Shown here: one piece after another, positions 31,321-46,011 of the stretch | How positions within the stretch are numbered: position 1 is the first letter of the stretch | Layout of the letters: each line of letters starts with the position of its first letter | Assembly: GCA_965218975.1 (NCBI GenBank) | Contig: OZ244717.1 | Span: 1,600,001 to 1,664,000 of the forward strand | DNA length: 64,000 nucleotides | Direction: 5' to 3' | Source of the DNA: Candidatus Oxydemutatoraceae bacterium | GTDB taxonomy: Bacteria; Pseudomonadota; Gammaproteobacteria; Poriferisulfidales; Oxydemutatoraceae | The notes under the pieces: generated by a model | Databases searched by the model: none | Told to the model about the DNA's origin: nothing | The model's input: only the letters and a program-made list of their open reading frames with translations | Position numbers and translations under genes: made by a program

Positions 31321-32586
31321 TGTACGTGTCCAGATACATACTGGATTCTTGAATGTCAATAAAAAGGCGACCGACATGCAATATCAGCACATCGGCCACC
31401 GCATCAAAGGTTTCTATAAAATAGCCAATTTTACTTTAAAAATAGAGGCTCATGAACACAACGGCTCAACAGAAACACGATGCCCTGTTATTTTGGGAGG
31501 ATTGTAACCCCAAACGCATTCAAGGTCGGTCGCAGCACTTTGTACCGCTGGCGCCGGCGTTATCGCCGCACTGGCCTCAGCGCCTTACATGATCGCGGCA
31601 AAGCGCCGCGTAAGAGGCGCCAGCGGGTTGTCAGCAAAGTGCCTATCGTCCATGACGAGACTTGGTTCTGTCAATGAACGCCAGCCCCGACGTCCTTGTC
31701 GAGTCGTTCGCCGCTGAAAACCGATCGGTTTTCCGGGCGCGTCTCACCCTGCGCCAAGATTATCCGAATCTCGGCAGCAGTAAAAGCTTTGAACTGATGA
31801 AACCGTTTTGTGTTTGTTGCCGTGTTGTCAGTAAAGTGTCTGTCGTCCGTGACGAAACTTGGTTCTGCGAATGAACCCCAGCCCCGACATCCTTGTCGGG
31901 TCGTTCGCCGCTGAAAACCGATTGGTTTTCCGGGCGCGTCTCACCCTGCTCGTCCATGACGAGACTTGGTTCTGTTAATGAACCCAGCCCCGACGTCCTT
32001 GTCGGGTCGTTCGCCGCTGAAAACCGATTGGTTTTCCGGGCGCGTCTCACCCTGCTCGTCCATGACGAGACCTGGTTCTGTCAATGAGCACCAGCCCCGA
32101 CGTCCTTGTCGGGTCGTTCGCCGCTGAAAACCGATTGGTTTTCCGGGCGCGTCTCACCCTGCTCATCCATGACGAGACTTGGTTCTGTCAATGAGCGCCA
32201 GCCCCGACGTCCTTGTCGGGTCGTTTGCCGCTGAAAACCGATCGGTTTTCCAGGCGCGTCTCACCCTGCTCGTCCATGACGAGACTTGGTTCTGTTAATG
32301 AACCCAGCCCCGACGTCCTTGTCGGGTCGTTCGCCACTGAAAACCAATCGGTTTTCCGGGCGCGTCTCACCCTGCTCGTCCATGACGAGACTTGGTTCTG
32401 TCAATGAGCACCAGCCCCGACGTCCTTGTCGGGTCGTTCGCCGCTGAAAACCGATCGGTTTTCCGAGCGCGTCTCACCCTGCACCGTTCTCATGCCGGTA
32501 ACAGACAGAAAGCACCGATCCGAATGTTACTGCCGAATGCTTCCCCCGAAGCCCTTCAAAAATCCCATTTAGAGTGGCATCGTACA
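31321..32586 (+). mobile_element. non-autonomous IS481-derived element 3
   Basis: TGTACGTGTCCA..GGCATCGTACA ends; MQYQHIGHRIKGFY, AFKVGRSTLYRW and QKSHLEWHRT fragments. Confidence 0.87.
31646..32481. repeat. seven ~107-bp units (1 isolated + 6 contiguous, 31844-32481), opposite orientation to arrays 1 and 2
   Basis: Units end ..GTCTCACCCTG at 31751, 31948, 32054, 32161, 32268, 32374 and 32481. Confidence 0.95.
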
Positions 32587-32591
32587 AATCA

Positions 32592-32620
32592 TTGACCGTT
32601 CACAATCGTATCGTTAGAAT
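32592..32620 (+). promoter_or_regulatory. sigma70 promoter of tRNA-Asn
   Basis: TTGACC-N17-TAGAAT. Confidence 0.7.
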
Positions 32621-32632
32621 GCAATACCCTAT

Positions 32633-32708
32633 TCCCCGGTAGCTCAGTCGGTAGAGCGGGTGACTGTTAATCACTAGGTCGGCGGTTCGAGCCCGTCCCG
32701 GGGAGCCA
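32633..32708 (+). tRNA. tRNA-Asn(GTT)
   Basis: TCCCCGGTAGCTCAGTCGGTAGAGC..CTGTTAA..GGTTCGAGCCC..CCGGGGAGCCA, 76 nt. Confidence 0.96.
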
Positions 32709-37102: not shown

Positions 37103-38391
37103 TAAAAGCCTATTTTGTCAGCTTTAATCAAAGCCTTCCCTTCCATGTAAAGAAGCAACGCTTCCGGAATACGAATAGAACCGTCTTCGGTTTGATAATT
37201 TTCAAGCAATGCGGCCAACGTGCGTCCCGCCGCCAAACCCGACCCATTCAAAGTATGCACAAGCTTTGGCTTGGAAACGGAAGGATAACGCACGCGCGCC
37301 TGCATTCGGCGTGCTTGGAAATCTGTCATATTACTGCATGATGATACCTCAAAATATCTCTTCTGACCCGGCAACCATACTTCAATGTCGTATGTTTTTG
37401 CGGAGGAAAATCCTAAATCACGACTGCATAACTCAACGACCCGGTACGGCAATTCCAGTAGTTGTAAAATCTTTTCGGCGTGTCCGGTTAGCTCTTCTAG
37501 TGCCGCCGGTGAATCTTTTGCTTCGACAATTTGCACTAATTCAACTTTTTCAAACTGATGTTGCCGCAAGATTCCGCGAGTATCTTTACCGTAGCTCCCC
37601 GCCTCGGAGCGAAAACATGGCGTATGCGCGGCGAATTTTAGCGGTAAGTCATTGGCATCGATAATCTTATCTCGGCATATATTAGTCAACGGTACTTCTG
37701 CCGTCGGAATTAAATAGAAATCGCTGTTGCTAATTTCAAACAAATCTTTGCTAAATTTCGGTAATTGCCCGGTACCCCGCAAACTAACGTGATTGGCAAG
37801 ATAAGGCACATACACTTCGCGGTAGCCATGTTGCCGAACATGTGTATCAAGCATTAAACGGATTAACGCTCGATGCAACAAAGCCAAATCGTCAAAAAAA
37901 ACCGCGAATCTTGTACCGGCAAGTTTCGCCGCGATTGACGTACTCATCATCGCTAAACCTTCAGCCAAATCAACATGATCCTTTGCAATAAATTGAAAGT
38001 TAGGCGCTAAACTCCAACGACGAATTTCAATATTATCACTCTCATCTTTGCCGTCGGGTACGGAATCATCAGGAATGTTCGGCAATTCTAAAAGAATCGC
38101 TTCCAATTTTTCCCGCACCTCATGCAGTTTCTTCTCACATCCTTCAATTTGCTGCTTTATACCTGCCGCACGTTCTAATAAAACGCTGGCGCCATCCGCT
38201 TCGCGTTTGGCAGTCGCAATTTCTTTCGCCAATTTCTTGCTACTTGATTGCAATGTTTCAACTTCAATTTGCAAAGACTTGCGCTTGGTTTCCAATGTTT
38301 GATACTTTGCTTGATCAAACATGCTGCCGCGCCTATGTAATGCGGCAGCAATTGTTTCCGTTTCGTTGCGTAGTCGCTTAGGGTCAAGCAT
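37102..38391 (-). CDS. serS: serine--tRNA ligase
   Basis: LIPTAEVP, CFRSEAGSYGKDTRG..RQHQF, HTLNGSGLA. Confidence 0.98.
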   Translation of the reverse strand: MLDPKRLRNETETIAAALHRRGSMFDQAKYQTLETKRKSLQIEVETLQSSSKKLAKEIATAKREADGASVLLERAAGIKQQIEGCEKKLHEVREKLEAILLELPNIPDDSVPDGKDESDNIEIRRWSLAPNFQFIAKDHVDLAEGLAMMSTSIAAKLAGTRFAVFFDDLALLHRALIRLMLDTHVRQHGYREVYVPYLANHVSLRGTGQLPKFSKDLFEISNSDFYLIPTAEVPLTNICRDKIIDANDLPLKFAAHTPCFRSEAGSYGKDTRGILRQHQFEKVELVQIVEAKDSPAALEELTGHAEKILQLLELPYRVVELCSRDLGFSSAKTYDIEVWLPGQKRYFEVSSCSNMTDFQARRMQARVRYPSVSKPKLVHTLNGSGLAAGRTLAALLENYQTEDGSIRIPEALLLYMEGKALIKADKIGF

Positions 38392-38697
38392 TAAGTTGCC
38401 GACCCGCTGAAATTAAACCCGATGCAACTGAAAATGCACACAACGCTAAGTAGAATATTAGTAAGTACGCCGAAAGCGATGAACTACCGATAATGGGAAT
38501 TAATGCCACATAAGGAGACTTGATCAGGAACAAAACACGAACACGCATGACGCTACAATGAAGCATAGCGCCGACACTGCTTCCCATCACGGCTGACAAT
38601 AATTTCATAATCTATAAACAAAGCGGCTATTCTAGCAAATATTAGGCATACAAGCAGACAACGCTTCAGATGCTTTGGTTATAAGTTGGCGGACCTA

Positions 38698-38810
38698 ATT
38701 AAATGAGGTGCCCCATTGAGAGGCACCAAAGATTAGTCATAAAAGACGTATCCTGCTGATAATTTTGTTGTAAAAAACGAGCAGGCTCAGTTCAGGTACA
38801 ATCTGCAGTG
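38698..38810 (-). ncRNA. predicted tracrRNA
   Basis: 36-nt anti-repeat 38767-38802 with G-U-compatible stem substitutions and an internal loop; 3' hairpin GGTGCCTC-TCAAT-GGGGCACC (38707-38727); own promoter. Confidence 0.8.
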
Positions 38811-38816
38811 CCTCTT

Positions 38817-38845
38817 AGTATAAAAGAAGCGAGCGGTTAATGCAA
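38817..38845 (-). promoter_or_regulatory. sigma70 promoter for tracrRNA
   Basis: TTGCAT-N17-TATACT on the minus strand. Confidence 0.7.
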
Positions 38846-38850
38846 ATCAA

Positions 38851-39047
38851 TGTATAGGTCTATAACATTTGGCACTCCGGGGGTGGTGAGTCAGGAGCGA
38901 TCAATGACCGGTTATGGGAGTATTTGGTGTGGTATAACCTGCATCGTCCTCATGCCGGCAAATAGACAGAAAGCACCGATTCGAATGTTACTGCCAAACA
39001 CTTCTCCTGAGGCTCGGCAAAAATTCCATTTAGGGTAGCATCGCACA
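38851..39047 (+). mobile_element. 197-bp IS481-derived miniature element
   Basis: Left end TGTATAGG..AACATTTGGCACTCC (like 21121), right end ..GGGTAGCATCGCACA; internal NDRLWEYLVWYNLHRPHAG. Confidence 0.8.
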
Positions 39048-39098
39048 GAAACTGTTTTAGTTATAGCATATAATCTGAAACAAACGTAGGAGGTAATT

Positions 39099-39390
39099 AT
39101 GAAAAAACATTATATCTGCGTAATAATTTTACTATTAGCGCCAACTATTTACGGACAATCATAACGAACAACCGTCAGTGCCGGAAAACCAATATCTGAC
39201 GTGGCCTTATGTTATTGTAGATTGCGGGCAGGTTCAGTTCAGGTACAATCAAGTTTACCAACTACACGACAAAGATCACTGGTCGCCATATGCGGCTTTA
39301 ATCGATTTGCGGTCGGAGGATGTAAATAGCCCGGCCGAATGGACTTTACAGATAATATTAGCACCTTTGCACGGACATGAAGAAGAATAA
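39099..39390 (+). pseudogene. small putatively secreted protein gene (1-nt frameshift) containing an in-frame CRISPR repeat
   Basis: AGGAGG RBS; MKKHYICVIILLLAPTIYG signal-like start; +1 frame continues DNHNEQPSVPENQYLTWPYV-[repeat]-QVYQLHDK..EEE*. Confidence 0.45.
39214..39249 (+). CRISPR. orphan perfect CRISPR repeat
   Basis: ATTGTAGATTGCGGGCAGGTTCAGTTCAGGTACAAT, identical to the array consensus, 644 bp from the array. Confidence 0.95.
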
Positions 39391-39415
39391 AATGGAACTA
39401 AGGAAGTAAAAAATT

Positions 39416-39706
39416 ATGATATCTAAAAAACTTAAACTACTGTTTGGCGTTGCAATTATCGGTGTCTCAACGATTGGTATTTGCGAGGAACCAATCATCG
39501 CAACGCAAACTAAAATCTTAGAGACATATGAAACCGGTGTAACTATCTTAGCTTACGATGGTTTATGCGAAGCTATAGGAGAATGCAAAGGTATTGAATT
39601 GGATGACGATATTATCATTCTACGTGCGGATAATTACTGTAGTCTTTTCGGCAAAATAGCTTATCTAGTGCAATCGGATTGTCTTGTGAGATACAAAGAC
39701 ATTTAG
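39416..39706 (+). CDS. small Cys-containing putative secreted protein
   Basis: 96 aa, basic + hydrophobic N-terminus, AAGGA RBS, 5 Cys. Confidence 0.6.
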   Translation: MISKKLKLLFGVAIIGVSTIGICEEPIIATQTKILETYETGVTILAYDGLCEAIGECKGIELDDDIIILRADNYCSLFGKIAYLVQSDCLVRYKDI

Positions 39707-39893
39707 GTTTGTCATAAGAAAAAACTAATTTATGTTTGTGTGTATGAATAATGTTTGAATTCCTTACGAATGACTTTTATAGAGGGATCTTATGGATATT
39801 ACTTATATTCTTTGTGTTATGGCTGTGGGTGATAGCTGTTATGAAGAATTGGGACGAATAGATACACTATGAGTATAGTTATGGTTCTAATAA

Positions 39894-40326
39894 ATTGTAG
39901 ATTGCGGGCAGGTTCAGTTCAGGTACAATTGCTGCACTAAATAGGATAATCTTCGGACTATTGTAGATTGCGGGCAGGTTCAGTTCAGGTACAATCCTGA
40001 ATATGCTATATCTGATGACTATTCCATTGTAGATTGCGGGCAGGTTCAGTTCAGGTACAATAAAAAATATCAGATAGAAACAGGACCAGGAATTGTAGAT
40101 TGCGGGCAGGTTCAGTTCAGGTACAATTCGACTTCAGGTGAAACTTTACTAACCTATATTGTAGATTGCGGGCAGGTTCAGTTCAGGTACAATTGGTGGC
40201 TAATTCGCGTTGGCTCGTCAGTGCATTGTAGATTGCGGGCAGGTTCAGTTCAGGTACAATTGTGAAATACATAGACACTTGGGTGTGTCAATTGTAGATT
40301 GCGGGCAGGCTCAGTTCAGGTACAAT
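39894..40326 (+). CRISPR. type II-C CRISPR array, 7 repeats (36 bp) and 6 spacers (30-31 bp)
   Basis: Repeats at 39894, 39960, 40026, 40092, 40158, 40225, 40291 (last has one T>C change); strand inferred from tracrRNA pairing. Confidence 0.97.
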
Positions 40327-40337
40327 CAATACTTGCC

Positions 40338-40350
40338 TAAGCAATTGATA
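40338..40350. promoter_or_regulatory. IHF-like site in the short cas2-proximal leader
   Basis: TAAGCAATTGATA matches YAANNNNTTGATW, 11 bp from the last repeat. Confidence 0.5.
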
Positions 40351-40364
40351 TAAAGCGCTTTAAT

Positions 40365-40705
40365 TCAGAGTATGGAGAGCTGTTTGGGTGCGCTTTCTGT
40401 TGGAATGCGTTTTGAACCATAGTAAACACGCATACGCTCAAATTGCTTCTCGGTTATTTTCAGGATACGCACTTCTCCTTTAGGGGGAAGTATTCGCATG
40501 ATTCGTTTACAGTGCACTTCGGCGCTTTCGTCGCTAGCGCAGTGTCGAGTGTAAACCGAATATTGCAACATCACGAAGCCATCTTTGATTAGTTTTTTAC
40601 GAAATTGCGTATATTGGCGGAGGTCGGTCTTAGTTTCTGTCGGCAGATCAAAAAGTACCATTGTCCACAAGCTGCGAAACCCCCCAAAAGTAATGTTTCT
40701 TTCAT
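40365..40705 (-). CDS. cas2: CRISPR-associated Cas2 (start uncertain)
   Basis: WTMVLFDLPT, FRKKLIKDGFVMLQYSVY, LPPKGEVRIL.ITEKQF. Confidence 0.93.
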
Positions 40706-40708
40706 TCC

Positions 40709-41596
40709 TCACGCAGAAACTGGAATGATGAGCTTGCCTTTGCGTGTTTCCAGTATTTCGCGCAGACTCGAACAATACGTTGCCAGTGCGCTCATAAGAG
40801 GCATTTTACGTTTTTTTACCAAAACCTGGGTGCTGAGTATTTCCAGTAAACTATTTTTTGCATTGCGGTCAAGCCCGTTAAATATCTCGGCTTGTAACAA
40901 TTCTGCAGCACATTGATCAACCAATGGCCGCAGGGGCTCCATAATGTCGTCCGCCAAGCAAAAAACATTGTATTGATTATGGTGGTGTACCCCAAAAGCG
41001 GGGTGCAGACCTGCTCCCATAAGCGCACGGGAACATGCAGTGCGAATTAAACTATAGCCATAGTTTAACAATACATTGATATCGCCTGAGCCATCTTGGT
41101 CGCATCTGAATCTTTTGCCGAAAAGCAACTTGAAATAGATACGGGTGGCTTGTGCCTCATGGTTGTTAATATCATTAGGCTGAACAGTTTTTGCCAGCCG
41201 CGCTAACGGGACGCTCTCTATACCGCGCATGAGCGCTAATGTCGTTGCCTGCGCATTGATTTTAGCCCGAATGATCTGTTGCCAAACGACATGCCGTGTT
41301 TCTTCCGGGGCGGAAGCCTGCATCCGCATAATTTTACCTTGGGTGCTATGGGCATCAAGCGCAAGCAACATGGAAGTCGGCAAATGACTCTCGTCGGTGA
41401 TAATGAGCGCGACATTCTGCTTTGCGCAATGTCGAAACACGCTTTGGCTGCAAGTAATTTGCGGATTATCCAGTATTAGAAAACCAATATCTTCAAAAGA
41501 AATACTATGCCTACCCTCGTTATTCTGAATGATCAGTTGGTTTAGGTTCACGCGAAGGCGTGCCGCAGAAGCAACCTCTATAATTCTACGAATCAT
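40709..41596 (-). CDS. cas1: type II Cas1
   Basis: NHEAQA..YF, LNYGYS, GVHHHN..FCLADDIMEPLRP. Confidence 0.96.
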   Translation of the reverse strand: MIRRIIEVASAARLRVNLNQLIIQNNEGRHSISFEDIGFLILDNPQITCSQSVFRHCAKQNVALIITDESHLPTSMLLALDAHSTQGKIMRMQASAPEETRHVVWQQIIRAKINAQATTLALMRGIESVPLARLAKTVQPNDINNHEAQATRIYFKLLFGKRFRCDQDGSGDINVLLNYGYSLIRTACSRALMGAGLHPAFGVHHHNQYNVFCLADDIMEPLRPLVDQCAAELLQAEIFNGLDRNAKNSLLEILSTQVLVKKRKMPLMSALATYCSSLREILETRKGKLIIPVSA

Positions 41597-42911
41597 CCGG
41601 CAACCGACCTAAATTACCTAGTTGCGCTTTGCTAAAATTTATTTCGGACAATGATGATATGTTCCATAATCCCCAATCAGTATCGGTTCCGGAAACACTA
41701 TGGTGGCGCAGATAAAGCTTTAACTGATTTCCTGATTTGCTCATTTTTTGCACCCTGAAATAGGGGGTTGCTCTATGTTCGGGGGCAAAGTTATCCTTAT
41801 CCTTCTCAAAGGCGCCTGAGTCATCGCATCGCACCATGTCGTTATTGCACAGATGCAATTCGTAATACCATTCGCCTTCCCACTCTTCAGGTGGCATCTT
41901 ATTGATAATGGGCTGTCTGGTGCTTGCGCGTCTTACCGCCTCCAACATAGTGACCATGAGAAACTTTCTTTTTCTTTTCTTTCCTTCCTCACCGTTATGA
42001 AAAAGCGCAAAATGGTGGTTACTACCAGTCTGAACATAAGAATTCGCTATTTTTAGATAGGATTTCGTTTTGGTTTGAGCGCGACGCACACGTCGAATCG
42101 GTGTACTGAGCTCGCCTTTTTTGTTGATTACCCGTGGCGGTGTGTTGCTTAAAACTTTTTGTATTTCTCCAGATTTTTTTCCGACCAGATTATGCTCATC
42201 CAACCATTGATAAAGAACCTTGTGAATAGACTCTTCGGCAATCCATGTTTGCCCGGTGTGATTATGCCAGTCCCTGTCTTTAATTTTTTTCAGCAGCGCA
42301 CCATCTAATTCTTTGCGAGAAACCACCCATTCATTTCCATCACGTAATTTGACGCCGAATAGCGTCTCTTCGTGTAACGCGCCCCATATTTTTCGTTTTG
42401 TCATATGAGATACAACAGTCCTGTTCAGTCGGTCACGCAGAATATTGCGTACATCACCATCAGCTTGCCAGCTTTCGGGCAGTATAAGACGTCTTTCCTT
42501 AATCCATTCCTGTTTGGTTTTTCGACGCGACGGATTTTTATCATCTTGCTCTTGTTTATGCACTTCTATCATCGCTTTGAGCATGGCGCGATCGGTAATA
42601 GCGACAACAAAGGCATCCACCGCATGATGGCGGTGGTCCCGACGTGACTTTTCGGCTCGGATTGCCCTATATTGCAAGACCGTTTCACCGTCGTCATTAT
42701 CGCCATCTAACTGTTCGTATGCTCCGGAATCAGGTTGCTTAGGCAAAATATCATTCAGTCCCAACCGACGGCGTAATTCAGCAGTTGCCGCCCCAATGCC
42801 TATATCAACAGGCACGCCGTATTTTTCCAGCATCTTTTTGGAGGCAGTTGCGATATCATGTCCCTTCAATACATTCTCGTAAAATAGGATTTTTTGCATT
42901 CCTGAATTATC

Positions 42912-42927
42912 ATCTTACCGGTAAGAT
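42912..42927. promoter_or_regulatory. perfect 16-bp palindrome, probable operator carried by the insert
   Basis: ATCTTACCGGTAAGAT upstream of the DUF2306 gene. Confidence 0.5.
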
Positions 42928-42992
42928 ACAATACTAACAGAGATCTGGGCACCATCGGTTGACCCAGCCATAGCCCCGCAAGGACCACTGCC

Positions 42993-43400
42993 ATGACCCT
43001 CGCCCCCCTGCTCAACGCGGCCCAGCCCATCCCTCCCCACACCATCCTGGCCTTTGCCGCAGTCGTCGTCGGCGGCCTCCAGCTCCTAATGCCCAAGGGC
43101 ACCCGCAGGCACCTGCTGATGGGATACAGCTGGGTCGGTTTGCTGGCCTTTGTCGCCATCAGCGGCTTTTTCATTCATGAACTCAGGCTCTGGGGGCCAT
43201 TCAGCCCGGTCCACATCCTCAGTGCCTTCACCCTCTTGTCCATCTGGTGGGCAGTCTCGGCCGCGCGATCGGGCAACATCAGAAGGCATCAGCGCCTTAT
43301 GACGATTTTGTACGGCCTCGCGCTGATCCTGACCGGTGCCTTCACCTTCCTCCCCGGGCGCATCATGCATGAGGTCATAACAGGAACGGGTGCCATTTAA
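42993..43400 (+). CDS. DUF2306-like membrane protein inserted antisense within cas9
   Basis: KGTRRH..GYSWV, SGFFIH, GPFSPVHILS, FTFLPGRIMH; AAGGA RBS; visibly more GC-rich than cas9. Confidence 0.85.
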   Translation: MTLAPLLNAAQPIPPHTILAFAAVVVGGLQLLMPKGTRRHLLMGYSWVGLLAFVAISGFFIHELRLWGPFSPVHILSAFTLLSIWWAVSAARSGNIRRHQRLMTILYGLALILTGAFTFLPGRIMHEVITGTGAI

Positions 43401-45749
43401 TTGACGTTCAACAAACTCGCCCTCACCCTCGGGGTTGTGTTGTGTTTTAAGGATATTTCGTTTTTTGGGCTGCAAAGGGCCTTTGTAATGCTCTTTAGCA
43501 AACTGTTATATGCTAAGCCAACGATCCTGATCATGACCCCACGCTTCATAAGAAGTACGTTGCCCCTTTTCCGCATTGCAGCTGTAACAGCTGACAACCG
43601 TATTCATATAGTTTTGACTGAATCCGGTATATGGCAAGATATGCTCTATTTCCGCGTTGCCGGAAAATAAGTCGTTAATACTGATCGGCTTACCGCAATA
43701 AAGGCATTTCTCTTCTTGTTCATTTTTCCACATTTTGTACTTGTTTCTATCGTCAGGATTGACGCGACGTACTCCGCTGCGCATCTCTTCCAAAGAAATG
43801 TTGGGGTTTCCTTCGTTATAAAACTTTAAGATTTCTTCTTCTGCGGTTTCATTCAGCTTTCTGTTTTCTCTTTGCCGGCTTGCTATTTTCTTGCGGTGTT
43901 CTTTGGAAGATTTCATTTCACGTGCCATCTCCACCCGGATAATGGCAGGCTTGCCGTAGCACCTAATAATGGAGTTAATTACGCGGCGTATCTCATATAA
44001 AGCCTTTTGCACAATGGGGTTGGCAATGTTAGGAACATCTTGAACACTTAATAAAAAGTCTTCTTCAGTTTCTTTGATAGGTTTGGTTATGCTTTCGCGT
44101 TGGCCTATTTCCTCCACCGCCCGGTAATAATCAAGACCTCTACGGAGATGCGGCAAAAGCGCGTTAATTGCCTTGAGGCTATGTTTCCCATAATCGCTTT
44201 CTATACCCTCGTTCATCGCAAGCCCCAAAGCGCCTTCCGTGAGGCTGCCTCCGGCTTGGTAGCACGGAAACTTCCAATGCCTAATCAGTCTGTCGTATAA
44301 GGCTTTTTTGTTATGCATGGTGATTAGATCTTCGACCAGCTCAGTTTGTTCTTTCTCACTCAACTGTTCCCATTCACTTGTACCGATGGAACGACTGATT
44401 GCCTGCATGGTTTTATTTCCCGGTACTCCGGTTTTGCCTCCGTCATCACTTTCTCGATTGTAATTTATAGCTTTTCGTTTCACGCCCAACGCATCGGCAA
44501 TTTTTTTCCAGGAAATGCGCCCGTGATTATTTAACTCATCAGGATTATTAGACAAATCCAAAAGCTGCTGTCGTTGTGCCGAATCGAGTCGGGTTCCGTC
44601 AATTCTAATATTATTAATCATCTGTAAAGTGCGGAATTCTTGAAACTCCAACCGCGCCATAGCTGCACGTTTTTTATGCGGGAAGATATTACAGTTACCG
44701 ACTTTGTTCTTTTGTAGTTGTAAGGGACGCTGGTCAAAAATCTTTTCTTTTACGGATCGCGCTTCTTCGTCCGACAACTTATAAAAAGTATTTTGTTTCT
44801 GCCAAATCGCATCAAATTCTTTTTCGTGCATTTCACGTTCAGCACGTAACTGTAACCGTTTACCTCCCGGTGCCTGTTCATCTTCCGGCACATCGAAAAG
44901 CGTGACGCGCTGGGGCGGCATCCGTCTGCGCTGAGATTCTTCCCAGATGAATTGTCCGATGGTTCTATTGCCTAATTTTTTTCTTAATTTTTTGATGCCC
45001 GACAATACCGGCGATACACGGCGTCTATCTTCCTTGTCTGCCATAGTGGACGTATCGTCTTTCAGGGTCGCAATATAAAATTCAGGCTTTGCAAAATTCA
45101 AGGATTTTATGAGATCGATATACTTTGCGCCGCGATTGCTGAAGTAGCCGCGTCTGCGCTGCAGATGTAGTAATAATCTCCCGAATTCATACGGTTCCAG
45201 TTTTTCCTCAAGAGAAAAATTGCGCATGGCGTACGAGGAGCAATAGAATTTTTCCGTCACAAGCCATTTATTAGACCACTTCTTTCCAAGCTTGCGTTCA
45301 GCGTACTTGCGGTCAATCTCATTGAGTATTTTTTCCGGATTCTGTGAATAATCATCAGGCAACAAACCTTTATTGACAAGTATTTCCAAAAGCTTTCTGC
45401 GTCTTCTTTTGTAATATGCGCGGCGATTACACGCACCGCGAGCCATGCGCCGTTTCTGGTTTTTAGGTACTTCGTTTTTTGCTTCGACCATCTCCAAAAA
45501 AATACGGGAATTCAAGGCACGTAAAGAGGTGGACTTGTACCCGGCATAAATTCCTTGATGCTCCCCTTGTTCTTTTTCACAATCCACCACGGCCCAACCG
45601 ATAGAGTTAGTACCGACGTCTAAACCTAAGATGTAAGGGTTGGAATTCATATACTCAAAAATAAGCTACGATCTGTTCGTTAATAATCAGCATTCACATT
45701 GCAAAGCCTGAATTTTATATAGTATATTACTAGATATATATAGTAGGAC

Positions 45750-46011
45750 AAATATCGGATCGGCCACCTTTTTTATTGACAGCCAAGAGTCTGGTTTATT
45801 TCTAAACACGTATAGATTGTATCAATCATAAAGAAAACCTATTATTCGCCGATATGGAAATATTCAATGATCGGGTATCAAGGTATTTAAAATGGGGTAT
45901 AAGCCGCACTGTCTTTATGCTGATAGCGAACAGAAAGCATTGATCCGAATCCTGCTGCCGAATACTTTCTCCGAAGCTTTTCAAAAATCTCATTTAAAGT
46001 GGCATCGTACA
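45750..46011. mobile_element. two degenerate IS481 end remnants upstream of cas9
   Basis: 45750-45813 is a reverse copy of the 31321-type end; ~45830-46011 resembles the C-terminal segment ending GTGGCATCGTACA. Confidence 0.7.

Follow-up and report, generated by a model that had tools for sequence, protein, structure and literature searches.

Why does a single, perfect CRISPR repeat lie 644 bp away from its array, in the middle of an open reading frame (ORF)? The question is raised by positions 39,048 to 39,893 of a 64,000-nucleotide (nt) stretch of the genome of a Candidatus Oxydemutatoraceae bacterium (contig OZ244717.1, positions 1,600,001 to 1,664,000 of the forward strand), which is called the window here and to which all coordinates refer unless stated otherwise. 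An earlier reading made from the sequence only had proposed that this repeat, which we term R0, and the small secreted-looking ORFs around it represent either a gene-sized old spacer or an mRNA through which the CRISPR machinery regulates genes or derives a guide from coding sequence. With a probability of about 0.5, we take R0 to be the oldest repeat, at the leader-distal end of a decaying type II-C array, and to have been cut off from the other repeats by 644 bp of non-CRISPR DNA with an orphan small gene. The lone repeat is thus most likely an ordinary product of the decay of the locus rather than a novel mode of gene control, and by analogy with other type II-C systems a residual promoter function of R0 is plausible.

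The 36-nt repeat ATTGTAGATTGCGGGCAGGTTCAGTTCAGGTACAAT is present in eight copies in the 2.08-Mb genome, all of them on the plus strand, and the reversed control pattern gave 0 matches in the same whole-genome pattern search. Seven of the eight copies are exact, including R0 (39214-39249, plus strand), whose sequence match is beyond chance (blastn-short E 3.9e-16). The search therefore confirms the exact 36-bp repeat at 39214 and the distance of 644 bp to the array start at 39894 that had been noted before. The remaining copies, R1 to R7, form the array (39894-40326, plus strand) with six spacers of 30-31 nt, and R7 (40291-40326, plus strand), which is adjacent to cas2, contains a single T>C change. 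R0 is in line with the array at a distance of 1.1 kb from cas2. The short stretch between R7 and cas2 (40327-40364, plus strand) is presumed, from its position and by analogy only, to be the leader, and at the matching place of a related locus, L022, 50 bp are found. By this analogy we infer that R0 marks the old end of the array, distal to the leader, which upholds the sequence-only reading in this respect.

Based on its gene content the system is of type II-C: it consists of cas9-cas1-cas2 with no csn2 or cas4 alongside, and there is no further cas ORF between cas9 and the array, which begins 38 bp past cas2. The cas2 (40365-40775, minus strand; Pfam CRISPR_Cas2 1.4e-18) and cas1 genes (40709-41596, minus strand; Pfam Cas_Cas1 3.6e-29) are open. 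A putative trans-activating CRISPR RNA (tracrRNA) is encoded at about 38808-38697 on the minus strand. It is preceded by a promoter-like TTTGCA-18-TATACT (38846 to 38817), contains an anti-repeat (38802 to 38767), and ends with a terminator hairpin of the form GGTGCC...GGCACC (stem 38727-38707) followed by a T-rich tail. The anti-repeat is the only repeat-like sequence in the window outside the repeat copies, and its predicted duplex has an energy of -54.5 kcal/mol with the plus strand repeat versus -41.1 kcal/mol in the opposite orientation. The layout parallels that of L022, where an anti-repeat, the common TCAGCAGG motif, and a terminal hairpin can be aligned by eye. Because of the duplex energies, the promoter and terminator sites, and the L022 layout, the CRISPR RNAs (crRNAs) are expected to be read on the plus strand toward cas2, and the tracrRNA on the minus strand. 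The same evidence bears out the earlier placement of R0 and the ORFs on the crRNA strand between tracrRNA and array. Elsewhere in the genome, a gene for a 573-aa Cas4-Cas1 fusion (C1:346868-348589, corresponding to L027:781-2502; Cas_Cas1 3e-84, Cas_Cas4 1.2e-20) suggests a second, different CRISPR-Cas system.

The cas locus is in decay. The cas9 pseudogene (41589-45650, minus strand), in which Pfam detects Cas9 domains, can be followed in one frame throughout and contains stops at 43506-43508 (TAA), 43086-43088 (TAG), and 42915-42917 (TAA). In a tblastn search the intact 1260-aa Cas9 of L022 aligns with residues 7-769 to 45656-43386 and with residues 771-1256 to 42854-41589, with 60% identity over the N-terminal part and 61% where the match is best. 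Apart from these two alignments the search gave no match in the genome, so that no second cas9 was found, and the intact effector that belongs to a type II-C system is absent here. The gene is interrupted between neighbouring residues by an in-frame insert of 531 bp (42855-43385; guanine-plus-cytosine (GC) content 0.60-0.65). Two of the three stops are located within the insert, and the third, the TAA at 43506-43508, replaces a glutamate of the orthologue. On its opposite strand the insert carries a fragment of a DUF2306 membrane-protein gene (ORF 42993-43400, 3.4e-14). Although unique in this genome, the insert has about 10x depth and different flanks in the sequencing runs X1 and X2, in which contigs break at 42885 and 43356/43385, and therefore it looks as if its sequence were also present in other, more abundant DNA of these samples.

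In addition, the locus is surrounded by remnants of insertion sequences (IS). Two plus strand IS end fragments, identified by blastn, abut each other between the tracrRNA and the R0 region. The first (38851-38900) has more than 10 related copies in the genome. The second (38901-39051) has dozens of copies and represents the 3' end of an rve-type transposase gene; it reads WYNLHRPH, and a genomic copy reads ...WYKLHRPHVG.... A further fragment of this second IS is found upstream of cas9 (45864-46011). The fragments at 38901-39051 and 45864-46011, both 3'-end pieces that share the IS family and the orientation, bracket the CRISPR-Cas unit and leave the tracrRNA outside. The locus must have been rearranged because the tracrRNA is located beyond the array here and upstream of cas9 in L022.

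How could R0 have been separated from the array, and what could it still do? As the leader-distal repeat, R0 would once have been the first repeat in the direction of transcription, and the oldest crRNA would have been expressed from its promoter. Non-CRISPR DNA of about 0.6 kb would then have come to lie between R0 and R1, because it was captured into the oldest spacer or because the repeats recombined. In Neisseria meningitidis and Campylobacter jejuni the repeats hold their own promoters and transcription starts from the sixth nucleotide of each spacer, as described in PMC12477760 and PMC5965381; Neisseria also has a repeat adjacent to the leader (PMC12477760). Every repeat of the family studied here contains TTGCGG-16-TACAAT and the L022 repeat keeps TTGAGG-16-TACAAT, so that the layout TTGnGG-16-TACAAT is common to both. 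By analogy with Neisseria, the promoter within R0 would start an RNA near 39255, and it probably still reads into the 644 bp. Such an RNA would run through a 96-aa ORF and reach R1, because no plus strand terminator-like site is predicted between the two repeats or anywhere else in 38600-40450. It could pair with the tracrRNA at R1, but the Cas9 that would stabilise or employ the transcript is missing. The genome does have an intact RNase III.

The DNA between R0 and R1 (39250-39893) is AT-rich and gives few hints to its origin. Like the DNA upstream of R0 (39052-39213) it is unique in the genome, and the GC content of the two pieces is 0.30-0.44 compared to 0.477 for the genome. Among 41 genomes, comprising the own genome and 40 relatives, 38600-39900 matched the own genome and, with two 31-nt matches restricted to the IS part, G008. 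There was no match of 39052-39893 to phage and plasmid records at E <= 0.01. At E <= 10, the best values for 39150-40330 were E = 4 among the phage records (10 records) and E = 1 among the plasmid records (28 records), which is chance level. The repeat core was found 0 times each in the metagenome and viral contig collections. The flanks of R0 show no similarity to those of R1 or R7, or to L022.

Whether the small ORFs are genes has to be judged from their anatomy, their codon use, and their homologues. R0 is translated as IVDCGQVQFRYN within a stop-to-stop frame of 83 codons (39139-39387, stop 39388-39390, plus strand) that contains no ATG; with the GTG at 39178 as start, the ORF list gives a product of 70 aa. 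Upstream on the plus strand, the letters and the translated frame reveal a TATAAT (39069-39074), which the consensus promoter scan does not call, an AGGAGG (39088-39093), and a signal-like ORF of 21 codons (39099-39164). From its ATG at 39099 the latter reads MKKHYICVIILLLAPTIYGQS up to the stop at 39162-39164, and a one-base shift between 39139 and 39162 is needed to join it to the frame of R0. The sequence-only reading was thus correct in placing the repeat in an open frame one frameshift away from an AGGAGG-led signal-like start. Its other landmarks, the TATAAT at 39069, the 96-aa ORF, and a 26-aa ORF with an AGAGGG, are also found in their places. The 96-aa ORF (39416-39706, plus strand) begins 25 nt after the stop of the R0 frame. 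It has a hydrophobic N-terminus, five cysteines, an AAGGAAG 9 nt upstream, and a preceding promoter-like TTTGCA-16-TAAAAT at 39366-39393. The 26-aa ORF (39792-39872, plus strand; AGAGGG at 39781-39786) overlaps in another frame with a 36-aa ORF (39751-39861, plus strand), which directly precedes R1 and reads MFEFLTNDFYRGILWILLIFFVLWLWVIAVMKNWDE. The latter is very hydrophobic, lies in T-rich DNA without a Shine-Dalgarno (SD) sequence, and may be a chance frame.

Open frames at R0 are weak evidence for genes because frames of such sizes are expected by chance. Two of the three frames of the repeat itself have no stop, and in 3000 dinucleotide shuffles of 39052-39893 open frames of at least 83 codons appear 0.28 times per shuffle and those of at least 96 codons 0.11 times. 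In favour of coding there is only the codon use, whose score is 0.094 +/- 0.080 for real genes, compared to -0.128 +/- 0.079 for open frames after shuffling. The 83-codon frame scores 0.044 (P 0.019 versus shuffled frames, P 0.089 versus open non-coding frames of real genes), and its 25 codons before and 46 codons after R0 score 0.095 and 0.066, respectively (P 0.031 and 0.040 versus open non-coding frames of real genes). The score of the 96-aa ORF is 0.084 (P 0.004 and 0.080 in the two comparisons). However, the 36-aa and 26-aa ORFs also pass against open non-coding frames (P 0.044 and 0.032) despite their mutual overlap in different frames; since these two cannot both be real, the power of the test is low.

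Homology does not extend the picture. Both the 96-aa ORF and the 83-codon frame were found in the own genome only, one of 53 genomes of the order. Among 5.8e9 proteins the 96-aa ORF retrieved itself only, and there was no candidate for the 83-codon frame. With or without the 12 repeat-encoded residues, no homologue of the R0 frame was found. An exhaustive phmmer search of the 96-aa ORF against 1.8e9 representatives returned the ORF itself and P0002 at E 6.6e-5. P0002, a repetitive protein of 891 aa, contains five matches, with 34-39% identity, to the same 31-59 residues and is regarded as uninformative. The ESM Atlas contained no usable match for the 96-aa ORF and, for the 83-aa frame, only unnamed clusters of 29-35 aa at 0.89-0.90, which are uninformative. 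Single-sequence folds had a mean predicted local distance difference test (pLDDT) score of 35.8 for the 96-aa ORF and 47.1 for the 83-aa frame, too poor for a structure search, and a library scan assigned no Pfam family to the small ORFs of the 644 bp. Nevertheless, its SD sequence, its own promoter-like site at 39366-39393, and its hydrophobic N-terminus make it plausible that the 96-aa ORF is a true orphan gene. The R0 frame is probably non-working and, in the best case, a broken gene; it either continues by chance or is what remains of a gene for a small secreted protein.

A Cas9 search of the species genomes yielded a single related locus, L022, in which the array follows straight after cas2 and a carbonic anhydrase gene is located at the far end of the array. 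Retention of the repeat and the ORFs beside cas9 was not observed in this single related locus, as L022 has neither a lone repeat nor such small ORFs. A Cas1 search of metagenomes revealed three loci with 35-42% identity on contigs of 1.4-4.6 kb, which are too distant and too short for comparison.

If R0 and R1 acted as repeats of processed guides, the candidate guides would be 39184-39213 and 39864-39893, respectively. Neither has a second match in the genome, and the 11-12 nt proximal to the protospacer adjacent motif of both guides have 0 genome matches. Within the window, the R0 guide has no match of at least 9 nt, and the R1 guide has one chance-level match of 10 nt at 38172 inside serS. 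Searches of the six spacers and the two pseudo-guides against phage and plasmid collections gave nothing better than E = 1, and the search for a target of the guide at about 39184-39213, which the sequence-only reading had suggested, thus came out negative for the genome and phages. With cas9 a pseudogene for which no second copy was found, and with guides that lack targets, this genome lends no support to Cas9-dependent regulation or use of guides, nor to the idea that the CRISPR machinery regulates these genes or derives a guide from them.

The assembly was checked with contigs from several sequencing runs. Contigs built with k=31 cannot span the whole 36-nt repeat, so that only the finished assembly, a single contig of 2.08 Mb despite dozens of IS copies, tells in which order the pieces follow each other. 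The contigs of X1 reproduce 38700-39243, and those of X1 and X2, which belong to one study, reproduce 39220/39221-39923, in each case with 0 differences. From other studies, X6 contains 39049-39199 and X5 contains 39478-39789, again with 0 differences each. The contig 39220-39923 is about twice as deep as its flanks in both X1 and X2: 32.3 and 268.2, respectively, compared to 13.2-17.8 and 94.9-133.3 for the single-copy flanking contigs. The array unit 39967-40055 reaches 52.8 in X1. The raised segment extends from about 39052 to 40260, at about 2-3x the flanks, with the IS end as its left limit and R6 as its right one; the bins imply that 39053-39243 is raised, too, and contigs starting in R6 are back to 1x. 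In X5, which is from another study, the depth is not raised (2.8 versus 2.7-4.7), and the finished genome contains a single copy of the segment. The doubled depth could stem from tandem duplication by way of the repeats, from a co-resident variant that has the segment in a second context, or from copies that were excised. A separate observation concerns the array itself. One read of X6, which comes from another study, consists at 39894-39932 of the repeat (3 differences in 39 aligned bases) followed by a different spacer, and because the flank reads of this run are otherwise exact matches, the array content seems to differ between strains.

Several points weigh against R0 being a mere relic. 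Both repeats that bound the 644 bp are whole and perfect, and an old terminal repeat is usually degenerate (10.1101/2020.10.09.333658). The consensus scan does not call the repeat promoter, whose -35 element matches in three of six positions. The 644 bp have no similarity to the IS copies of the genome by blastn, no terminal inverted repeats, no direct repeat linking their ends as a target duplication would, and no phage or plasmid match. The doubled depth over 39220-39923 in X1 and X2 would not be expected from a plain relic. Finally, gene-like codon-use scores were obtained, if only in a weak test, for both flanks of R0 and for the 96-aa ORF, which fits a real or recently real gene spanning R0.

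Alternatively, R0 may have been kept for its promoter, which, possibly together with a tracrRNA-guided RNase III cut at R1, would express the 96-aa ORF as a small secreted or membrane protein. R0 is perfect at an array end where repeats usually decay, the TTGCGG-16-TACAAT within it is preserved in L022, and the ORF with its SD sequence and gene-like codon use (P 0.004 and 0.08) follows 160 nt downstream with no predicted terminator between. The required RNase III is intact, and repeat-embedded promoters have been demonstrated in type II-C systems (PMC12477760, PMC5965381). However, the ORF has a promoter-like site of its own, it is without homologue in the searches made, its fold is poor, and the other array repeats are equally perfect without such a role, so that the perfection of R0 may just reflect that the decay is recent. 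We regard a co-opted promoter as unlikely, but not as far-fetched. The chances are clearly smaller that an element with its own copy of the repeat recombined into the array at a repeat and that a later deletion left the 644 bp and small cargo ORFs behind. A single crossover predicts two complete, identical flanking repeats as they are found here, the insert is AT-rich and made of orphan ORFs, and excision or amplification through the repeats would suit the doubled depth of the repeat-bounded segment in the two runs. Solitary repeat units on mobile elements (PMC10651486) and the entry of a prophage into type II repeats (10.1101/2020.10.09.333658) have been documented. But the segment has neither phage or plasmid similarity nor, according to the Pfam scan, an integrase or other mobile-element gene, the repeat core is missing from the viral and metagenome contig collections, and the Streptococcus pyogenes phage, as described, uses an 8-bp core and splits the repeat, whereas both repeats are whole here.

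Slightly less probable still, and corresponding to the second proposal of the sequence-only reading, is that R0 came to lie in, or arose as part of, the frame of a small secreted-protein gene, now frameshifted, whose mRNA offered a pairing site for the tracrRNA while Cas9 was alive. Non-canonical crRNAs derived from mRNAs are known, the start signals (AGGAGG, ATG, and signal-like peptide) are strong, both flanks of R0 are open in one frame with a codon use in the middle of the range of real genes, and the 25 nt to the next ORF are operon-like. This history requires a frameshift in a frame without ATG, of a length that is common in shuffles, neither a homologue nor a target of the would-be guide was found, and cas9 is dead. 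In addition, we know of no mechanism for inserting one bare repeat into a gene, although no search was aimed at one. Precedents for such RNAs are the small CRISPR/Cas-associated RNAs (scaRNAs) and tracr-L (PMC12477760, PMC13431127). It is improbable that the arrangement is an artefact of the assembly or the population, such as a collapsed tandem duplication, and that the repeat-bounded pieces in truth have another order or copy number. The k=31 contigs end inside the repeats and cannot order the pieces, and in X1 and X2 the depth is raised about 2-3x from about 39052 up to R6. However, the genome closed into a single contig despite its IS copies, all junctions, from the flank into the repeat and from one repeat through the 644 bp into the next, were reproduced without differences in X1 and X2, the depth is not raised in X5, and a 644-bp piece bounded by two repeats exists in any order. 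The same small chance is given to the 644 bp being a true array unit, a gene-sized "spacer" that would, with its small-protein gene, be transcribed from the promoter of R0, obtain its 3' end through tracrRNA pairing at R1, and be amplified or excised through the repeats, which would explain the doubled depth in two runs. As a structural description of 644 bp between two complete and perfect repeats, the gene-sized old spacer of the sequence-only reading is fair.

If R0 is indeed the cut-off oldest repeat, the locus provides a snapshot of a Cas9 system falling apart in an IS-rich, shrinking genome, in which the effector was lost first and decay has not yet touched the array, tracrRNA, cas1, and cas2. 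For annotators it is a caution that a perfect lone repeat in an open frame does not necessarily mean a new function. If the R0 promoter drives the adjoining orphan gene, a CRISPR repeat would have been reused as a plain gene-expression signal, and the finding would matter more if the raised depth reflected repeat-mediated amplification. If the 644 bp were a gene-sized "spacer", CRISPR repeats would serve a host or cargo gene as a cassette for its expression and recombination, and would still do so after the loss of Cas9. Outside the CRISPR-Cas unit, at about 31760-32600, the same set of ORFs recurs at a spacing of 320 bp (e.g. 31893-32087 and 32213-32407) just before a tRNA gene (32633-32705), which suggests a tandem duplication.

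Among known systems, the locus belongs to type II-C by its gene content, repeat, and tracrRNA, with a pseudogene in the place of the effector. IS elements are known to interrupt CRISPR arrays, and CreTA is a Cas9-linked regulatory RNA comparable to other repeat-bearing RNAs next to cas loci. Interruption by mobile DNA has also been described for Tn7-like transposons targeting repeats (PMC11837452) and for the prophage PhiAP1.1 in the type II-A repeats of S. pyogenes (10.1101/2020.10.09.333658). The locus shares with these arrays the non-CRISPR DNA within the array and the detachment of a part of it. In contrast to them, the insert here has no transposase, integrase or phage gene, no Pfam family, no match to an IS copy, and no end repeats, and unlike at PhiAP1.1, as far as its source describes it, the flanking repeats are complete and not split at an attachment core. 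Narrow keyword searches of the literature did not turn up a type II-C array with a gene-sized insert between two intact repeats, although such a description may exist. The solitary repeat units and RNA anti-CRISPRs (Racrs) of PMC10651486 resemble R0 in being single repeats with a -10-like box within 250 bp upstream and small ORFs of unknown function adjoining. However, R0 is chromosomal, identical to and in line with the repeats of the array 1.1 kb from cas2, and not part of a recognisable virus, plasmid or prophage, which agrees with the absent phage and plasmid similarity and the 0 matches of the repeat core in viral contigs. With the scaRNAs of Francisella and N. meningitidis (PMC13431127) and with tracr-L (PMC12477760) the locus has in common a repeat-bearing RNA by the cas locus that could in principle guide an effector to a host target. 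In contrast to these and to CreTA, the repeat here is not degenerate but perfect, the gene for the effector is broken, and no partial target, as a promoter or 5' untranslated region of the genome would provide, was found for the guide. The tracrRNA is located beyond the far end of the array, unlike in L022. The type II-C systems of N. meningitidis and C. jejuni, as portrayed in PMC12477760 and PMC5965381, are similar in consisting of cas9-cas1-cas2 only, in their 36-nt repeats and 30-nt spacers, in a crRNA strand convergent with the cas genes, in repeats that end in a -10-like TACAAT, and in a tracrRNA with a terminator hairpin; from these systems the locus differs in that its cas9 is a pseudogene and one of its repeats has been split off by 644 bp.

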